Of a DNA stretch of 64,000 nt, positions 32,740 to 39,415 are shown piece after piece. The position numbers and the translations under genes are program-made. The notes under the pieces were generated by a model that had not been told where the DNA came from, did no database searches, and saw only the letters and a list, made by a program, of their open reading frames with translations. How positions within the stretch are numbered: the first letter of the stretch is position 1; each line of letters starts with the position of its first letter. The stretch covers positions 4,035 to 68,034 of the forward strand of contig CAVYRK010000001.1 in NCBI GenBank assembly GCA_963770955.1, read 5' to 3'. Source of the DNA: an uncultured Actinomycetota bacterium. GTDB lineage: Bacteria; Actinomycetota; UBA4738.

Positions 32740-33066
32740 CTATCCTCCGGCTCCCGACACGTGGTGCTGCAGTGCGGCACTGAGCAGGTACGGAGATCCC
32801 TGTGCGGACAGCTGCTCGTCGCGCCGCGTGTACGGCTGGACGAGAACATCGGGGCTGTCGGTGACCAGGGGCCTCGACCGAAGTCCCCACGAGTCCCAGC
32901 CCCAGCGCGCCGGTGACGACGACGAGTGTGATCCAGAGTGTCGCCGGCTGCTGTTCGGCGTCCGCCAGGATGAACATCAGGACGACGCCGAACAGCACCA
33001 GCGTCGCCAGGAACGTCAGCAGGATCCGTCGGAGGGTCGCGAGGTGGGACGCACCCCGGGATTCAC
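32740..33066 (-). pseudogene. Disrupted small membrane protein
   Basis: Hydrophobic stretch LRRILLTFLATLVLFGVVLMFIL...LWITLVVVTGALGLGLVG with frame breaks at both ends; boundaries approximate. Confidence 0.4.
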
Positions 33067-34283
33067 TCGAACGCTTTGAGCCCGGTCAGTGCCTCGCCGA
33101 GGATCAGCGTGTGCACCTCGCTGGTCCCCTCGTAGGTCAGCACCGACTCGAGGTTGTTCATGTGCCGGATGACCGGGTACTCCAGCGTGATCCCGTTGGC
33201 GCCCAGGATGGTTCGCGCCTCCCGTGCGATGCGGATGGCCTCTCGGACGTTGTTCAGCTTGCCGAGGCTCACCTGCTCGGGCCGGAGCCGGCCCTGTTCC
33301 TTCATCCGGCCGAGGTGCAGCGCGAGCAGCATCCCCTTGTTCAGCTCGACGAGCATGTTCGCGAGCTTCTCCTGCGTCAGCTGGAACCCGCCGATCGGCC
33401 GGCCGAACTGCACGCGCGTCTTCGCGTAGTCGAGCGCCGCCTCGAAGCACGCGCGCGCCGCGCCCATGGCGCCCCACACGATGCCGAAGCGCGCCTCGTT
33501 CAGGCACGACAGCGGCCCGCGGAGCCCGCGGACCTCGGCAGTACCGCGTCGCCGGGCAGCCGGACGTCCTTGAGGATCAGCTCGGACGTGACGGACGCGC
33601 GCAGCGACAGCTTCTTCGCGACGTCCTTGGTCGAGAACCCGGGCGCGTCGGTCGGGACGATGAACCCGCGGATGCCCTCGTCCGTCCGCGACCGCCCACA
33701 CGACGGCGACGTCGGCGATGCCGCCGTTCGTGATCCACATCTTCGCGCCGTTCAGCACCCAGTCGCCGCCGTCGCGCCGCGCCGACGTCCGCATCGAGCC
33801 CGGGTTGCTTCCCGAATCGGGCTCGGTCAGCCCGAAGCACCCGATCACCTCGCCGGTTGCCATGCGCGGCAGCCACTCCTGCTTCTGCTCCTCCGACCCG
33901 AACTTCCAGATGGGGAACATCGCGAGCGAGCCCTGGACGGAGATGAACGACCGGAACCCGCTGTCGCCGGCCTCCAGCTCCATGCAGGCGATGCCGTAGG
34001 ACGTCGGGTTCATGCCTGCGCAGCCGTAGCCCTTCAGGTGCATGCCGAGCAGCCCGAGCTCGCCCAGCCCGGCGGCGACCTCCCGCGGGAACTCGCCGCG
34101 CTCGAACCAGTCGCCGATGCCGGGCAGCACCCGATCTACGACGAACTCGCGGACGGTGTCCCGGACCATGCGTTCCTCGTCGGTGAGCAGCGCGTCGATG
34201 TCGAGGAAGTCGAGCGGCTTCAGCGGGGGACGCGCCGGGCGGTCGCCCGGGGGTTGGTCGGTCCGTTCCTCGGTGGTGGCCAT
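33063..34283 (-). CDS. gcdH: Acyl-CoA dehydrogenase, glutaryl-CoA dehydrogenase-like (frameshifts near 33690 and 33545)
   Basis: ELEAGDSGFRSFISVQGSL, CFGLTEPDSGS, NGAKMWITN, LGANGI, TYEGT. Confidence 0.8.
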   Translation of the reverse strand: MATTEERTDQPPGDRPARPPLKPLDFLDIDALLTDEERMVRDTVREFVVDRVLPGIGDWFERGEFPREVAAGLGELGLLGMHLKGYGCAGMNPTSYGIACMELEAGDSGFRSFISVQGSLAMFPIWKFGSEEQKQEWLPRMATGEVIGCFGLTEPDSGSNPGSMRTSARRDGGDWVLNGAKMWITNGGIADVAVVWAVADGRGHPRVHRPDRRARVLDQGRREEAVAARVRHVRADPQGRPAARRRGTAEVRGLRGPLSCLNEARFGIVWGAMGAARACFEAALDYAKTRVQFGRPIGGFQLTQEKLANMLVELNKGMLLALHLGRMKEQGRLRPEQVSLGKLNNVREAIRIAREARTILGANGITLEYPVIRHMNNLESVLTYEGTSEVHTLILGEALTGLKAFE

Positions 34284-34315
34284 CCGGGCATCACTCTACC
34301 GCCGCCCCGGGCGCG

Positions 34316-34321
34316 TATACT
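34316..34321 (+). promoter_or_regulatory. Candidate sigmaA -10 box for the leader/RIO transcript
   Basis: TATACT about 50 nt upstream of the leader ATG. Confidence 0.5.
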
Positions 34322-34369
34322 TCCCGTGCACGACGATCCATCGGACACGCGGAAGGGAGGGATGTGACC

Positions 34370-34429
34370 ATGGCGGAGACCTTCGACCCGGCATACAGAC
34401 GGCCACGTCCCTCGGCGGTGACCGGCTAG
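34370..34429 (+). CDS. Putative 19-aa leader peptide MAETFDPAYRRPRPSAVTG
   Basis: GGAGG at 34356-34360, 9 nt before the ATG; followed by an intrinsic terminator ahead of the RIO kinase. Confidence 0.65.
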   Translation: MAETFDPAYRRPRPSAVTG

Positions 34430-34450
34430 CGCGCGGCTGCTTGCCGCTCG

Positions 34451-34485
34451 CGGCCGCCCCCCAAGGGGGCGGCCGTTTTTCGTTT
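34451..34485 (+). terminator. Intrinsic terminator in the RIO kinase 5' leader (attenuator)
   Basis: Perfect 11-bp stem CGGCCGCCCCC-CAA-GGGGGCGGCCG followed by TTTTTCGTTT. Confidence 0.8.
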
Positions 34486-34519
34486 CCGTCACCGCTCCGC
34501 GAACAGAAAGGCACCTGCG

Positions 34520-35287
34520 TTGTCCGACCACCTGTACGACGACATGGACGTCCGCGACTCACCCGAGCGCGAGTCGTTCGAGCACTACTACGGCGAAGGG
34601 CTGGTCACCGACCTCGTCGCGCCCGTGAAGAGCGGGAAGGAGGCCAGCGTGTTCCTGTGCCGCGCGAACCCGGAGATCGCAGGGTCGAGCCTGCTCGCCC
34701 TGAAGCAGTACCGGCCGCGCGACCACCGCACGTTCAAGAACGACCACGTGTACAAGGCCGGCCGCGTCCTGAAGGAGCCGCGCGACCGCAACGCCGTCCG
34801 GAAGAAGACCGCCTACGGGCGCTCGTTCGAGCAGGCGTGGTGGACCGAGCACGAGTGGGAGGTCCTGCGCGCGCTGCACGAGGCCGGGGGCGACGTCCCG
34901 CGGCCGGTCGCGCGCACCGAGTCGTCGATCCTGATGGAGTACGTCGGCGACGAGGTGTCGCCGGCGCCGCAGCTCCGCCACGTGGGCCTGTCGCCCGAGG
35001 ATGCGCATGTCATCCTCGACCGGTTGCTGTGGAACGTGGAGCTGTTTCTCGGCCACAACTGGATCCACGCAGACCTGTCGGCGTTCAACGTCCTGTGGTG
35101 GGAGGGCAGGGCCACCGTCATCGACCTCCCGCAGGCGGTCGACCCGCGGTCGAACCCGCACGCGCACGAGCTGCTCGCCCGCGACGTGAAGAACGTCTGC
35201 GACCACTTCGCGAAGTTGGGCGTGCGCCGCGACGCCGACGAGATCAGCCGGGGCCTGTGGATGGCGTTCATGTTCGCCGAGCTGTGA
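34520..35287 (+). CDS. RIO1-family atypical kinase/ATPase
   Basis: KSGKEASV, ALKQY, ILMEYVG, IHADLSAFNVL, VIDLPQAV; TTG start preceded by GAAAGG. Confidence 0.92.
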   Translation: MSDHLYDDMDVRDSPERESFEHYYGEGLVTDLVAPVKSGKEASVFLCRANPEIAGSSLLALKQYRPRDHRTFKNDHVYKAGRVLKEPRDRNAVRKKTAYGRSFEQAWWTEHEWEVLRALHEAGGDVPRPVARTESSILMEYVGDEVSPAPQLRHVGLSPEDAHVILDRLLWNVELFLGHNWIHADLSAFNVLWWEGRATVIDLPQAVDPRSNPHAHELLARDVKNVCDHFAKLGVRRDADEISRGLWMAFMFAEL

Positions 35288-35307
35288 GGAAGTAGGCTCG
35301 GGCGGAG

Positions 35308-36117
35308 GTGGATGAGACCGTCGACGACACGGGAGTGCGGCGAGCCAGCTTCGGGCAGGAGGGCGGCGAGCTCTCCTACGGCTCGTACCTGCGCGTGCCC
35401 GAGCTCCTGTCGCTCCAGTCCCTGCTGTCCGATCCGCCTGCCCACGACGAGCTGCTGTTCATCGTGGTCCATCAGGCCTACGAGCTGTGGTTCAAGGTGA
35501 TGTTGTTCGAGCTGGAGTCGGTGCGCGACCGCCTGTCCGGCGGCGACGCGGCGGGCGCCCGGCACAGCCTGGCGCGCGTCCACGCGGTCGAGCGGGTGAT
35601 GATCGAGCACATCGGCGTCATCGAGACGATGACGCCGCAGGACTTCCTGGTCTTCCGCTCGAACCTGGCGCCGGGCAGCGGGTTCCAGTCCGTGCAGTTC
35701 CGCGAGATCGAGGCGGTGTCGGGGCTGAAGGAGCCGGGCGTCGCGACGCACATGGCGCCGACCGATGACGAGCGGGCCCGGCTCGAGCGGCGGTGGTCGG
35801 AGTCGACGGTGTGGGACGCGTTCTGCGCCCTCCTGGAGTCGCAGGGGTACCCCATGCCGGCCGGGGACGAGGCCGCGCGCCGCGAGAGCCTGCTGTCGAT
35901 GGCCCGGTCCGACGATCCGGCGCTGTTCTACCTGTCCGAGGAGCTGCTGACGCACGACGAGCTGTTCGCCCGGTGGCGCTACCACCACGTCCTGATGGTG
36001 GAGCGGGAGATCGGGTCCAAGTCGGGGACCGGCGGATCGAGCGGCGCCTCGTATCTGCGCACGACGCTCGACAAACGCTTCTACCCGGAGCTCTGGGCCC
36101 TCCGCAGCTATCTGTAG
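35308..36117 (+). CDS. kynA: Tryptophan 2,3-dioxygenase
   Basis: YGSYL, HDELLFIVVHQAYELWFK, SGFQSVQFR, WRYHH, GTGGSSGASYL. Confidence 0.92.
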   Translation: MDETVDDTGVRRASFGQEGGELSYGSYLRVPELLSLQSLLSDPPAHDELLFIVVHQAYELWFKVMLFELESVRDRLSGGDAAGARHSLARVHAVERVMIEHIGVIETMTPQDFLVFRSNLAPGSGFQSVQFREIEAVSGLKEPGVATHMAPTDDERARLERRWSESTVWDAFCALLESQGYPMPAGDEAARRESLLSMARSDDPALFYLSEELLTHDELFARWRYHHVLMVEREIGSKSGTGGSSGASYLRTTLDKRFYPELWALRSYL

Positions 36118-36183
36118 AGGGTCCTTGATCCGGGCGCGCAGCGCGCCACGATAGAGGTTCACGATTCCCTGGAGGACTCCGGC

Positions 36184-36825
36184 ATGCGTTCACTCGAGTT
36201 CGAGCGGTTCGCCGCGCAGGCGGCCAGGTGCGTTGCGGTCATCGGCTTCCTCTATACGGCGCTGTTCGTGGTCGTGGTGGAGAACGGCGCCCGGTGGGCG
36301 GCGATCCTCACCTCGATCCTGCTGCTCGGCGCGGCCCTGCTGTCCAGCGTGGTGTTCATCGCGCTCTACGGACGCCTGCATCTGATCGACCCGCTGATCA
36401 GCCTGTGGGTGACGCTGCTCGGGTTCGCCGCCGCCATCGGCTCCGCGATGCACGGCGGCTACGACCTCGGCATCCTGATCAAGACGCCGGAGGCCTACAG
36501 CACGGACCTCGCCAACTTCACCGACCCGCGGGGCCTTGCCACGTTCGGACTCGCCGGCCTGGCGATCCTGCTGTTCTCCTGGCTGATGGCGCGGACCGTC
36601 GAGTTCCCGGAGACCCTCATCCGGATCGGGTACGGGGCGGCCATCCTCCTGGGGCTCGTGTACCTGGGGCGACTGGTCTTCCTGGATCCGAAGAACCCCT
36701 TCATCGCCATCGCGGCCGTCCTCGCCGGGTTCGTGTTCATGCCCGCGTGGTACGCGTGGGTGGGTGCCATCCTGCAGCACGGCGCGACCTCGACCGGAAC
36801 GGGCACCGCCCCTCCCGTGCTCTGA
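36184..36825 (+). CDS. Membrane protein of unknown function (about 6 TM)
   Basis: Hydrophobic segments, HGGYDL and DPRGLATFG motifs; GGAGG upstream. Confidence 0.75.
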   Translation: MRSLEFERFAAQAARCVAVIGFLYTALFVVVVENGARWAAILTSILLLGAALLSSVVFIALYGRLHLIDPLISLWVTLLGFAAAIGSAMHGGYDLGILIKTPEAYSTDLANFTDPRGLATFGLAGLAILLFSWLMARTVEFPETLIRIGYGAAILLGLVYLGRLVFLDPKNPFIAIAAVLAGFVFMPAWYAWVGAILQHGATSTGTGTAPPVL

Positions 36826-36919
36826 GCCGCCTCCGCGCCCCGTTCGCGGGCCGGATCGTTTCGTCCCGTTCTGTGGGCGTCCGGTCAATCCCGCCCCGGG
36901 GAGCGCCGATGCTTCTGCG

Positions 36920-39415
36920 GTGAACCCCTACGCCATCGGTGATCCGGATCCGGCACAGGACCCCCACGAGGGAGCGCCTCCACCGGCTGTGTCGTCCTCC
37001 GGACCCGTCCTGAAGGCCGTCGCATTCGCCGCCGAGCGGTTCCTGGCGGCCGACTGGCGCGACTGCATCGACGAGGTCCTCGCTTCGCTCGGCGAGGCAG
37101 CCGGGGCCGACCGCGTCCTGCTGTTCGAAAACGAGCGCGAGCTCGAGCACAGCGTGCCGACGTCGATGGTCCCCGCCGCCGAATGGGCCGCGCCCGGCGT
37201 GCAGCCGGTGACCGGGCAGCCCGACATGAACGGACATCCGTACGAGGGACACGAGCGTTGGATCGCGGCGATGTCTGCCGGCGAGATCGTCCTGGAGCGA
37301 AGCGACGAGCCGGCCGATCACGAGTGTCCGTGTCTGGCGCAGGCGGGTACGCGATCCGCCGCGCTGGTCCCCGTGATGTCCGGCGCCGAGTGGTGGGGGT
37401 TCGTCGCGTTCAACGACTGCACGGCCGAGCGCGAGTGGGACCCGGAGGTCGTCGACGCGTTGCGCACCGCGGCCGCCCTGGTCGGCGCCGCCGTCCAGCG
37501 CGGCCGCACGGAGGGACGGCTGCGCGACGCGGAGGACAAGTTCCGCACCCTGGTGGAGCACGTCCCCGCCGTCATCTACGTGGACCGCGCCGACACGGTC
37601 GCCACGTCCCTGTACCTCTCGCCGCAGATCGACCAGCTGGTCGGAACGACGCGCGAGCAGCACATGAACGACCCGGAGCTGTGGCTCAAGATGATCGACC
37701 CCATCGACCGCGAACGGTGGCTCACCGAGTCGCGGCGCGTGATGGAGAACGACGAGGAGGAGTTCGCGCTCGAGTACCGCATCCGCGCGGCGGACGGCCG
37801 GCAGGTGTGGGTGCGCGACCGTGCCGCGCTCGTGCGCGACGAACAGGGCCGGCCCCACTCGTGGCGTGGCGTCATTCTGGACATCACCGAGCAGAAGCGC
37901 GTCGAGCAGGCGCTGGCCGAGAGCGAGGAGCGCTACCGCCGGCTGATCGAGGCGTCGCCCGACGCGGTGGTCGTCTACAGCGACTTCCAGATGGTCTTCG
38001 CCAACGACGCCGCCGCCCGCCTGGTCGGCGCGCCGGACAAGGACGCGCTGATCGGCAAGTCGATGCTGTTCGCGATCCACCCGGACGACCGGGAGACCGT
38101 TCGCCGGCGGGCGCAGGCCGGCCAGGAGCAGGGCATCTCGGCGCCGCCACAGGTGGTGAAGTTCGTCAGGCTCGACGGGGAGGTGATCGACGTCGAGATC
38201 TCCGACATCGCCATCACGTACGGAGGCCGCCCGGCCGTGCTGGGCGTCGCGCGGAACGTCACCGAGCGCCGCCGGACGGACGAGGCACTCCGCGAGGCGG
38301 AGCAGAAGTTCCGCACGCTGGTCGAGCAGCTCCCCGCGATCGTCTACATGGCCGAGTTCGATCCCTCGGGCGCGTGGATGTACGTCAGCCCGCGCATCCA
38401 CGACATCCTCGGGTACACGGCCGACGAGTGGGCGGCCGACCCCAGTCTGTTCGACCAGCGGATCCATCCCGAGGACGAGCCCGCGTACCGCGACGTCGAA
38501 CGCCGAAGCGGCGAGTCGGGCGAGCCGCTCACCGCCGAGTACCGGATGTTCGCGCGCGACGGGTCGATCGTCTGGTTCCAGGACCAGGCGGTGGTGGTTC
38601 GCGACCCGGACGGCCGGGCGCTCTACCACCAGGGAATCATGTACGACGTCACGGAGTCGAAGCGCGCGCAGGAGGTCCTGGAGAGCGGCCTCGAGCGCGA
38701 GCAGGAGGCGACCGAACGGCTCCGTGCCCTGGAAGATCTGCGCAACCGGTTCCTGACCGCCGTCGCGGGCGAGCTGCGGACGCCGCTGACCGCGGTGCTC
38801 GGGTACGCGCTCACCATGGCGCGCCCCGACATGGAGATGTCCTCCGAGGACCGCGCCGACATCTCGGCACGGCTGGCCGCCAGCGCGCGGCGCCTCGAGA
38901 GCCTGATGGAGGACCTGCTCGACGTGGACCGGATGGCGCGCGGCGTGCTGGAGGCGTCGCTGACGCCGGTGAACCTGGGCGACCTCTGCCGGCAGGTGGC
39001 GTCCGAGGTGGACCTCGGTGGCCGGGAGGTCACGGTCGAGGCCGGCGCGACCGTCGTGCGCGTGGACGGCGCCAAGGTCGAGCGGATCCTCGAGAGCCTG
39101 CTGGCCAACGTGGCCCGGCACACCCCGGCCGGAACGCACGCGTGGGTGCGGCTGGAATCCGTTCCCGAGGGGGTCGTGCTCTGCGTCGACGACGACGGGC
39201 CGGGCGTCCCCGACGAGGTGAAGCACGAGATCTTCCAGCCGTTCCGGCAGGCCCCGGGGCACCTCGTTCCATCCTCGGGAACCGGAATCGGCCTGGCGCT
39301 GGTGTCGGGGTTCGCAGACCTGCACGGCGGACGCGCCTGGGTCGAGGACCGGCCGGGGGGCGGCGCCTCGTTCCGCGTCCTCCTTCCCGAGGAGCGTCAG
39401 GCCCGGGCGTCGTAG
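36920..39415 (+). CDS. Cytoplasmic GAF + 3xPAS sensor histidine kinase-like protein lacking the phospho-acceptor His
   Basis: PAS units (FRTLVE..IDP/IHP.D..EYR..WVRD); H-box reads AVAGELRTPL; G1 DDGPGVP, IFQPF and G2 GTGIGL. Confidence 0.88.
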   Translation: MNPYAIGDPDPAQDPHEGAPPPAVSSSGPVLKAVAFAAERFLAADWRDCIDEVLASLGEAAGADRVLLFENERELEHSVPTSMVPAAEWAAPGVQPVTGQPDMNGHPYEGHERWIAAMSAGEIVLERSDEPADHECPCLAQAGTRSAALVPVMSGAEWWGFVAFNDCTAEREWDPEVVDALRTAAALVGAAVQRGRTEGRLRDAEDKFRTLVEHVPAVIYVDRADTVATSLYLSPQIDQLVGTTREQHMNDPELWLKMIDPIDRERWLTESRRVMENDEEEFALEYRIRAADGRQVWVRDRAALVRDEQGRPHSWRGVILDITEQKRVEQALAESEERYRRLIEASPDAVVVYSDFQMVFANDAAARLVGAPDKDALIGKSMLFAIHPDDRETVRRRAQAGQEQGISAPPQVVKFVRLDGEVIDVEISDIAITYGGRPAVLGVARNVTERRRTDEALREAEQKFRTLVEQLPAIVYMAEFDPSGAWMYVSPRIHDILGYTADEWAADPSLFDQRIHPEDEPAYRDVERRSGESGEPLTAEYRMFARDGSIVWFQDQAVVVRDPDGRALYHQGIMYDVTESKRAQEVLESGLEREQEATERLRALEDLRNRFLTAVAGELRTPLTAVLGYALTMARPDMEMSSEDRADISARLAASARRLESLMEDLLDVDRMARGVLEASLTPVNLGDLCRQVASEVDLGGREVTVEAGATVVRVDGAKVERILESLLANVARHTPAGTHAWVRLESVPEGVVLCVDDDGPGVPDEVKHEIFQPFRQAPGHLVPSSGTGIGLALVSGFADLHGGRAWVEDRPGGGASFRVLLPEERQARAS

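Follow-up and report, generated by a model that had tools for sequence, protein, structure and literature searches.

Leader and RIO kinase gene in the window

We analyzed a stretch of 64,000 nucleotides (nt) from an uncultured Actinomycetota bacterium (contig CAVYRK010000001.1, positions 4,035 to 68,034 of the forward strand; "the window" below means this whole stretch) with respect to a gene for a RIO-domain kinase/ATPase and the 5' leader located in front of it. The gene occupies 34520..35287 on the plus strand and starts with TTG. Its product matched PF01163 with 119.4 bits against a cut-off of 22 (E 1.9e-34). The nearest named family in NCBIfam was NF041645 (PA4780 family RIO1-like protein kinase, an equivalog); the score of 158.5 bits is below the cut-off of 350, and the protein is not a member of this family. 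In the alignment of 17 RIO homologs we found 42 invariant columns, including G39-K40-E41-A42, K62, H183/D185/N190 and D202, which we take to be the P-loop-like, ATP-lysine, catalytic-loop and metal-binding positions. Since the nucleotide-binding and catalytic positions are invariant in these 17 homologs, the RIO protein looks active, as far as sequence can tell. The in vivo role of bacterial RIO proteins (RioB) is still described as poorly characterized in the available part of the source (PMC5815136).

A first-pass annotation of this DNA had proposed that the gene is preceded by a -10 box, a strong Shine-Dalgarno (SD) sequence, a short upstream open reading frame (uORF) and a GC-rich terminator, and all these elements, as well as the RIO start, were found in the sequence. 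The promoter element of the leader transcript, as read from the sequence, is the -10 box TATACT at 34316..34321 (plus strand, as are all the leader elements given here). A TANNNT hexamer was located 46-70 nt 5' of the uORF start in 28 of 35 leaders of related loci, and in 12 of those 28 it was TATACT. Transcription of the leader would start at about 34328-34335. The strong SD of the uORF, GGAAGGGAGGG, is at 34351..34361, and GGAAGGAGGGATG was an almost invariant SD motif in 28 actinobacterial leaders. The uORF itself extends over 34370..34429, from the ATG at 34370 to the TAG at 34427-34429, with 19 codons before the stop and the peptide MAETFDPAYRRPRPSAVTG; the number of codons was as annotated, while the position had to be moved one base to the left of the one implied.

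In the minimum-energy fold the SD core and the spacer, GAGGGATGTG at 34357..34366, make the 5' strand of a helix that we call P1, and this strand is referred to as segment 1. Its partner, segment 2, is the anti-SD-like CACGTCCCTC at 34404..34413, which spans the uORF codons 12-15 (P-R-P-S). Right behind the uORF stop, a small hairpin P2 (GCGGC-TGCTT-GCCGC) is predicted at 34433..34447; by eye, with no formal count, most relatives have a short hairpin of varying sequence at this position.

The intrinsic terminator follows at 34450..34480, with the stem at 34450-34476 (12 pairs, 11 of them G-C, and a loop of 3) and TTTTT reaching to 34480. A GC stem with a T run had been annotated here; the distance from the end of the T run to the RIO start at 34520 is corrected from 35 to 39 nt. 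By a consensus scan this is the sole terminator-like site in 33800-36300, where shuffled sequences had a mean of 0.6. A separate RIO promoter downstream of the terminator, which the first-pass annotation had named as an argument against its own proposal, was not seen: a scan limited to sigma-70 consensus sites found none in 33800-36300 and hence none between the terminator and RIO. The two flanking genes diverge, as had been noted, and RIO is the only gene on which the leader can act.

Downstream of the terminator, GTCACCGC at 34488..34495 is the complement of GCGGTGAC at the 3' end of the uORF (34415-34422), a match that had already been pointed out. The two strands could possibly form a long-range helix enclosing the terminator in the read-through RNA. 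In relatives, leader L002 has GACGGG/CCCGTC at the equivalent sites and L003 an approximate match (both by eye).

Folding of the 206-nt leader was more stable than that of its shuffles, with z = -3.5. Rfam 15 produced four matches, all of them sub-threshold and on the terminator hairpin; the best one had 20.4 bits compared to a gathering score of 46 (E 0.92).

Among RNA-library contigs, all of which had only small shares of the sampled query words, we also found one of 183 nt from a close relative in a soil RNA library. It aligns to 34347-34517 with 5 letter differences and 2 indels, its 12 unaligned 5' letters put its start near 34335, and it extends 36 nt past the terminator. The contig fits a leader transcript with some read-through; this is a weak hint, with DNA carry-over possible. 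Such RNA contigs give no strand, ends or expression levels, and the missing cover of 34518-35182 in that run is uninformative.

Conservation of the leader and its linkage to RIO

The same layout, i.e., an SD, a uORF folded on it and a termination signal, was found ahead of RIO in more than 100 related genomes. Since the window leader folds with the z value given above and this layout recurs ahead of RIO in many genomes, we consider the leader, judged by its sequence, to be conserved and not a product of chance.

The first set of relatives included the 40 nearest genomes and the genome of the window itself (41 in total), of which 17 had a RIO homolog. At each of the 17 RIO loci we saw a TANNNT box and a strong SD, as well as a short ORF in which a CGTCCCTC-like stretch precedes the stop by a few codons; one of these loci was truncated by a contig end and one had incomplete hairpin letters. 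The gene upstream of the leader varied among the 17 loci. Alignment of the RIO upstream regions across actinobacteria, which had been suggested as a check, showed that the combination of a uORF with an intrinsic terminator is conserved in relatives.

In a profile scan of genome contigs with the RIO alignment A1, we considered the best 80 of 593 confirmed stretches. Among these 80, the leader was present at all 14 loci labeled Actinomycetota or Actinomycetes, 12 of which scored 54-80 bits while two were cut by contig ends. An analogous layout was seen at seven of the 66 otherwise labeled loci: L034, L035, L037, L074 and L094 (Chloroflexota), L075 (Isosphaeraceae) and L084 (Armatimonadota). At the remaining 59 of these 66 loci no leader was found.

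From 28 actinobacterial leaders and the helix P1 we derived a covariance model, R1. In the 41 relatives it produced 16 matches of at least 41 bits; 15 of them precede RIO, and the 16th (L129) is on a short contig with a RIO-like N-terminus at its end. Whenever the DNA downstream of a match of at least 41 bits was read or its place was compared, the match was ahead of RIO or of a RIO remnant. At E <= 1e-4, R1 had matches in 87 of 151 sampled genomes of the class, nearly always a single one. RIO was present in 93 of the 151, and a comparison of the two tables gave 85 genomes with both RIO and a leader match. At newly fetched match loci RIO was directly downstream in 26 of 26 cases. The eight RIO genomes with no R1 match comprised two with weaker matches, one with RIO at a contig start, one with gene fragments only and four with variant leaders; the latter were read by eye and three of them scored 25-32 bits. 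The tallies include the unpublished genomes G018, G019, G030, G122 and G154, and no conclusion rests on these alone.

Conversely, two of the 151 genomes had an R1 match and no RIO. In G113 an intact leader with its terminator (L163, G113:C128) stands ahead of a RIO remnant that has lost a large internal part; this reads as a regulated gene decaying behind a preserved leader. In G138 a GNAT gene stands in the place of RIO. This genome and G040 (one of the 41 relatives), both of family f7 and neither with a RIO match, have the leader (L162, G138:C60, and L134, G040:C13), with the SD, a uORF containing RPPS or RRPS and the GCCGCC...GGCGGC terminator, ahead of an ORF of 200-224 amino acids (aa). 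The G040 ORF codes for a GNAT acetyltransferase (PF13302, E 2.3e-22), and its nearest NCBIfam families included ribosomal-protein and aminoglycoside acetyltransferases, all below cut-off; the G138 ORF resembles the G040 protein by eye alone.

Being built from Actinomycetota, R1 misses the Chloroflexota-type leaders. L035 scored only 21.6 bits, the others had no match at the leader, and L094 had a sub-threshold match of 14.3 bits about 900 nt away from its leader. The kinship of the Chloroflexota-type leaders is suggested by the layout and the shared terminator stem. We conclude that the leader is spread over the whole actinobacterial class and probably occurs in other phyla.

Genomic R1 matches of 21-36 bits were judged false; they fell on gene starts with strong SDs (ctaD, an ftsW-like gene, a gene for a cNMP-binding protein and an ABC-permease-like ORF). 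The second-best match in the genome of the window, with 35.8 bits, is L128 (G000:C11:792597-792675), where a 96-aa ORF that contains a hydrophobic stretch has a strong SD and GGTCCCTC at its start and overlaps a 316-aa frame that is ABC-permease-like by eye. This is not a short uORF, and the match is probably false or an SD-hiding hairpin of that gene.

Upstream ORF and helix P1

All 67 distinct leaders had an SD-led ORF of 10-23 codons with an in-frame stop, while in the two shifted frames a stop at 10-30 codons was present in only 11 and 12 of the 67. This conservation of the in-frame stop is notable because stops are rare in such G+C-rich DNA. The uORF is presumably translated. The heuristics for picking uORFs and starts mis-picked a few loci (e.g., L021, L144, L084, L009, L015, L074, L152 and L157).

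The N-terminal part of the uORF peptide was not conserved, and in non-actinobacterial leaders the peptides were unrelated. Near the end, a motif xPS was found in 55 of the 67 leaders (RPS in 36 and HPS in 15), frequently with an extra conserved proline (P-R/H-P-S). Codon choice within this motif was strongly biased. The arginine was coded by CGT in 34 of 36 leaders, compared to 5.7% of Arg codons in the whole genome (70% G+C); the histidine was CAT in 14 of 15; the proline was CCC in 50 of 55, compared to 33% of Pro codons genome-wide. The AGA codon, which the first-pass annotation had called rare, indeed makes 0.9% of Arg codons in the genome of the window.

Helix P1 accounts for this pattern. 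Across the alignments, standard pairs made 78-89% of the P1 cells, compared to 26-73% when the partner strand was slid. In alignment A2 of 35 leaders, where the P1 columns were set by hand, 78.4% of the cells of the 11-pair helix were standard pairs versus 35-56% with the partner slid. Eight of the 11 pairs varied on both sides, and none of 500 shuffles matched the observed covariation score, a statistic that is overstated since related leaders are not independent. In the 62-row alignment A5 the pairing was 85.8%, with one distal pair observed as CG 21, UG 8, AU 6 and UA 3 times; the A5 counts include about four spurious secondary matches (L026:3317, L139 on the minus strand, L151:2552 and the weak L166). 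In the group of leaders that hide the RIO SD (alignment A4, see below) it was 89.3%, with one mis-cut row, L164x, adding noise to the counts. Tested leader by leader, P1 was better than 95% of the leader's own shuffles in 19 of 35 cases. RNAalifold predicted no pairs on the mixed alignment A2, in which distant sequences are misaligned. Leaders of other phyla kept the pairing with different sequences, as seen by eye; for example, GAUCCGC/GCGGAUC in L037, and GGUGGAUGU with ACAUCCGCC in L084. The core of P1 is conserved, while the enclosed loop is free in sequence and length.

On the evidence of codon choice, the conserved R-P-S is a by-product of P1 base pairing, with selection acting on the RNA and not on the peptide: the motif follows from pairing with the uORF's own SD, because the rare CGT and the CCC codons fit the paired positions. 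The first-pass annotation had read the same residues as a macrolide-type R/K-x-R/K arrest motif, with a drug-stalled ribosome exposing GGCGGU for pairing with the terminator 5' arm and producing read-through. This explanation could draw on RPRPS being present in the window and its closest relatives, on the frequency of xPS and of the extra proline, and on the complementarity of GGCGGU to GCCGCC in the window, which we confirmed. However, R/K-x-R/K was found in only 11 of the 67 leaders; the variant motifs RSF, RLF and RPW retained some pairing with the SD region by eye (most clearly in L164, weakly in L166); the peptides outside of actinobacteria are unrelated; and relatives do not generally show the GGCGGU pairing (by eye). 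In the folding tests described below, moreover, the terminator probability was never lowered by a ribosome on the motif codons. A drug-dependent arrest peptide is therefore unlikely to be what drives this leader.

Two other variants of the ORF arrangement were observed. In L012 (G011:C6) the R-P-S frame is open far past the usual stop and the SD-led frame reads VPS, which could be due to an indel in a long-read assembly or be a real variant. In L158 and L160 the interval from the terminator to the RIO start contains another strong SD together with a short ORF of its own, which would be a further regulatory layer there.

Two types of expression platform

In about half of the leaders, the one in the window included, the uORF is followed after 20-42 nt by a GCCGCC...GGCGGC hairpin with a T-rich tail. 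We collected 37 distinct leaders of this terminator type, having a GC stem and a T-rich tail; when the layouts of the loci were compared, the rows L028, L030, L067 and L086 were dropped by eye as false (a gap of at least 60 nt or no real SD). The stem is conserved across phyla more strictly than a terminator requires, and the 51 other terminator-like hairpins of the window's genome have unrelated sequences.

The remaining leaders, many of them from family f5, have no terminator and carry instead a hairpin that hides the SD of RIO. In this type the RIO SD (GAAGGAGC) has a C-rich, anti-SD stretch (GCUCCUUC-like) as its partner, and a G-rich GGGACGYGG is paired to a copy of segment 2 that lies downstream. 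For 22 leaders of this type, the probability that the RIO SD is unpaired was about 0.2, and its opening would cost about 10 kcal/mol.

Both platforms also offer a G-rich strand to segment 2 of the uORF. For the SD-hiding type, 89.1% of the cells paired between the G-rich stretch and segment 2, compared to 26-60% with the partner slid, and variants altered both partners of this alternative pairing jointly (e.g., CGCGUUCCU with AGGAACGCG in L164). For the terminator type, the loop together with the 3' arm (e.g., GGAGGGGCGG) is complementary to segment 2. By their layout, the leaders have one sensor and two platforms, as in riboswitch families.

Two other antiterminator pairings were considered and rejected. 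Segment 1 with the terminator 5' arm was weak in most leaders, and the stop-codon region was seen to pair with the 5' arm in the window and in L002, but not generally.

The conserved helix and the two kinds of platform are typical of riboswitches, and one may ask if the leader binds a metabolite with the ORF being incidental. We think this very improbable: the conserved part is a single SD/anti-SD helix whose enclosed loop varies freely, the start codon, the SD and the in-frame stop are conserved, and no Rfam family matches.

Equally hard to sustain is the idea that the leader is an independent gene for a small protein or a small RNA with its own terminator, RIO having its own promoter. A promoter, an SD, an ORF and a terminator do make a complete small gene, and the one RNA contig covers mainly the leader. 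Yet in the many relatives with no terminator the leader continues directly into the hairpin that hides the RIO SD; conservation of the peptide does not extend across phyla; the interval from the T run to the RIO start is only 39 nt with no promoter-like site; and the linkage to RIO is strict while the upstream neighbors vary.

A further alternative is autoregulation by a protein, in which RIO, a ribosomal protein or an assembly factor would bind the SD:anti-SD-like duplexes and stabilize the OFF state, with the uORF mainly loading ribosomes. Several SD-like and anti-SD-like strands do stand in series, and the duplexes resemble those on the 30S platform. The strict conservation of the terminator stem points the same way, as does its loose likeness to the helix 45 stem of the genome's 16S rRNA. 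In eukaryotes and archaea, the small subunit is what Rio proteins act on, according to the part available of PMC5815136. On the other hand, the hairpin loops vary freely, which makes a helix 45 mimic unlikely, and the leader also precedes the GNAT gene in the two genomes with no RIO match. We regard control of this kind as improbable, to about the same degree as an arrest peptide.

As to the resemblance itself, the helix 45 stem at the 16S 3' end (G000:C11) reads GCCGTACC-GGAA-GGTGCGGC and the leader hairpin GCCGCCCC-loop-GGGGCGGC. Given the free variation of the leader loops, mimicry of helix 45 was set aside as probably a coincidence.

Folding tests and proposed mechanism

The 37 terminator-type leaders were folded with a ribosome at different positions. 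As free RNA they had a mean terminator probability of 0.91. When the SD and the start were blocked, as by an initiating subunit, the mean fell to 0.64, with a drop of at least 0.3 in 13 of 37 leaders; several of these, two Chloroflexota-type leaders among them, went to about 0. With a ribosome on segment 2 the mean stayed at 0.91 (a drop of at least 0.3 in 0 of 37), and a ribosome at the uORF stop gave 0.88 (2 of 37). The contrast between 13 leaders responding to the block of the SD and start and none responding to the block of segment 2 suggests that the leader is ON when segment 1 is occupied and segment 2 accessible. The default state would be OFF, because free RNA folds the terminator and, in the relatives of the other type, opening of the RIO SD costs about 10 kcal/mol.

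We conclude that the leader is very probably a translation-dependent cis-regulator of RIO. As to how it works, our modeling favors, tentatively and with slightly less than even confidence, that RIO is off by default and that a ribosome stalled at the uORF start may free segment 2 to pair with the G-rich strand of the platform. In this proposal the dedicated promoter would give rise to a leader RNA whose SD is very strong and whose uORF has 13-23 codons, and segment 1 (SD and spacer) would pair with the C-rich segment 2 about 12 codons into the uORF, making P1. On a leader free of ribosomes, both P1 and the hairpin of the platform would form and RIO would not be expressed. A 30S subunit or a ribosome held at the uORF SD or start would cover segment 1 and expose segment 2. 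The free segment 2 could then pair with the terminator loop and 3' arm or with the inner 5' strand of the SD-hiding hairpin, and this pairing would allow transcription to read through or would open the RIO SD. Candidates for the ON condition are arrested or slow initiation, early stalling and an excess of idle 30S; both this condition and the physiological signal behind it are our inferences.

A number of observations weigh against this mechanism. The window's own leader showed no drop when the SD and start were blocked (0.85 to 0.93), and neither did 24 of the 37 terminator-type leaders. For 21-22 SD-hiding leaders, equilibrium folding did not show the RIO SD consistently opened by any ribosome position: the probability of being unpaired was near 0.2 and the opening cost was 10.2, 9.5, 9.7 and 10.3 kcal/mol over four ribosome states, and an erm-like switch was not reproduced. 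The complementarity of segment 2 to the loop and 3' arm was clearly above that of background terminators in only about 8 of 24 leaders, and the window's is not among them. Segment 2 must also outcompete the adjacent 5' arm for the 3' arm, which is kinetically unfavorable. Covariation of P1 within Actinomycetota is modest, as the helix core hardly varies, and the dependence among related leaders reduces the weight of the shuffle statistics. Finally, the RNA contig comes from a relative, could be DNA carry-over, and reads through the terminator. The decision of the switch may be kinetic, possibly drawing on the energy of 30S binding as well.

The opposite logic should be considered too: efficient translation of the uORF would lead to termination and poor or no translation to read-through, with RIO going up when active 30S is scarce. 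It has a published precedent in the whiB7 leader of mycobacteria and other Actinobacteria, for which the available part of a preprint (10.1101/2023.06.02.543512) gives a model where efficient uORF translation causes termination and stalling anywhere in a longer Ala-rich uORF causes antitermination. In addition, in the truncated transcript of the window the base of the terminator 5' arm has the stop-codon region as its partner. However, the untranslated RNA forms both P1 and the terminator with the high mean probability given above, free RNA hides the RIO SD in relatives, so that absence of translation predicts OFF, and relatives do not keep the stop region paired to the 5' arm (by eye). This inverse logic appears a little less probable still than the arrest peptide.

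Returning to a ribosome held at the uORF start as the trigger, a broader reading is conceivable, albeit doubtful: the leader could be a sensor of 30S subunits that are engaged at a start and are idle or arrested, and RIO and the RimJ/RimL-like GNAT could be stress-induced factors of 30S quality control or rescue. The very strong SD would capture 30S, and only a failure to move on would open the terminator or the RIO SD. If true, this would parallel the small-subunit role of the eukaryotic and archaeal Rio proteins. The predicted RIO start in 51 leader-bearing loci was TTG in 36, GTG in 12 and ATG in 3 (a heuristic assignment with a few mis-picks), often in the context CGCGTTG, and such non-AUG starts suggest an extra dependence on initiation fidelity. 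Under the idle-30S reading the near-universal non-AUG start would add a second layer, sensitive to initiation fidelity.

Comparison with known leaders

Ribosome-mediated attenuators are a well-known kind of regulator, and the vmlR, whiB7 and erm leaders are the closest in design to the RIO leader. In the translational attenuation of ermC, segments 1:2 and 3:4 are paired in the ground state, 3:4 hides the SD of the gene, and a ribosome on segment 1 shifts the pairing to 2:3; segment 1 belongs to the leader ORF, and the ribosome stalls in a peptide- and drug-dependent manner. The SD-hiding RIO leaders match this four-segment 1:2 / 3:4 layout. Unlike in ermC, segment 1 of the RIO leader is the SD with the spacer, and the leader peptide is not conserved across phyla. 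The trp, his and thr attenuators have a promoter, a leader peptide, alternative hairpins and an intrinsic terminator ahead of the structural gene. The RIO leader differs from them in having no codon run for a single amino acid, in a target that is not biosynthetic, and in a sensor helix that includes its own SD.

In the vmlR leader of Bacillus subtilis, as described in the accessible part of the source (PMC9226507), a short uORF is located inside a 5' anti-antiterminator hairpin; an initiating ribosome stalled by an antibiotic disrupts this hairpin, and an antiterminator replaces the intrinsic terminator. The same leader has a hairpin sequestering the gene's own SD, and both of these platform types, the terminator and the SD hairpin, occur among RIO leaders. 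Several differences can be named. The SD of the vmlR uORF is single-stranded and the uORF has three codons, while in the RIO leader the SD is a strand of the hairpin and the uORF has 13-23 codons. The antiterminator proposed for RIO uses the 3' arm of the terminator and not the 5' arm. The vmlR leader regulates an ABCF resistance factor and the RIO leader a RIO kinase, no sequence similarity was seen, and the RIO leader is known from sequence alone.

With the whiB7 leader, as far as the part available of the preprint goes, the RIO leader shares an actinobacterial 5' location, a uORF followed by a rho-independent terminator, a species-variable peptide, and a decision on read-through that uORF translation would make in the RIO leader as well. 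It differs in that its untranslated RNA already forms the terminator, its uORF SD is self-sequestered, and the downstream gene is another one. By eye, no enrichment of a single amino acid was evident in the RIO uORF peptides, compared to the Ala-rich uORF of whiB7.

The RIO leader is distinct from these systems in that the SD serves as a strand of the sensor helix, one sensor goes with two platforms, the peptide motif is really an RNA strand, and the target belongs to a poorly characterized family. A full-text literature search, the scope of which did not extend to supplementary lists of uORFs, found no description of it.

A dedicated leader gives a first regulatory clue tying bacterial RIO proteins to the translation apparatus: expression of RIO, a bacterial kinase that is little understood, appears to respond to the state of the ribosome itself. 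The leader is also a handle on the inducing condition and hence on the function of the kinase. A peptide motif that arises as a by-product of pairing calls for caution in sequence-based searches for arrest peptides.

Neighboring genes

The gene for tryptophan 2,3-dioxygenase (kynA; PF03301, E 1.6e-57) is located at 35308..36117 on the plus strand, 20 nt after RIO, and is probably co-transcribed with RIO in the window. The first-pass annotation had included it as a possible target of the leader. As a part of the conserved unit it was rejected, since kynA is downstream of RIO in only five genomes of two genera, G000, G001, G002, G014 and G022 (10 of 141 RIO-bearing locus rows, duplicates included).

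On the other side of the leader, an acyl-CoA dehydrogenase gene occupies 33063-34283 on the minus strand; it starts at 34283 and is divergent from RIO. A minus-strand TAGAGT (34293-34298) is about 10 nt 5' of its ATG (34283-34281) and is conserved in L001-L004, which suggests that the divergent transcript may be leaderless or nearly so. The gene is unusual at about 33500-33700, where the middle domain matches only positions 1-56 of 97 of the Pfam profile and residues ~204-251 read as a meaningless Arg-rich sequence. Two frameshifts that compensate each other, or an error of the assembly, could be the cause.

Farther downstream, at 36764-39415 on the plus strand, there is an 883-aa ORF opposite a spurious 1338-aa frame; by eye it looks like a sensor histidine kinase with repeated sensory domains.

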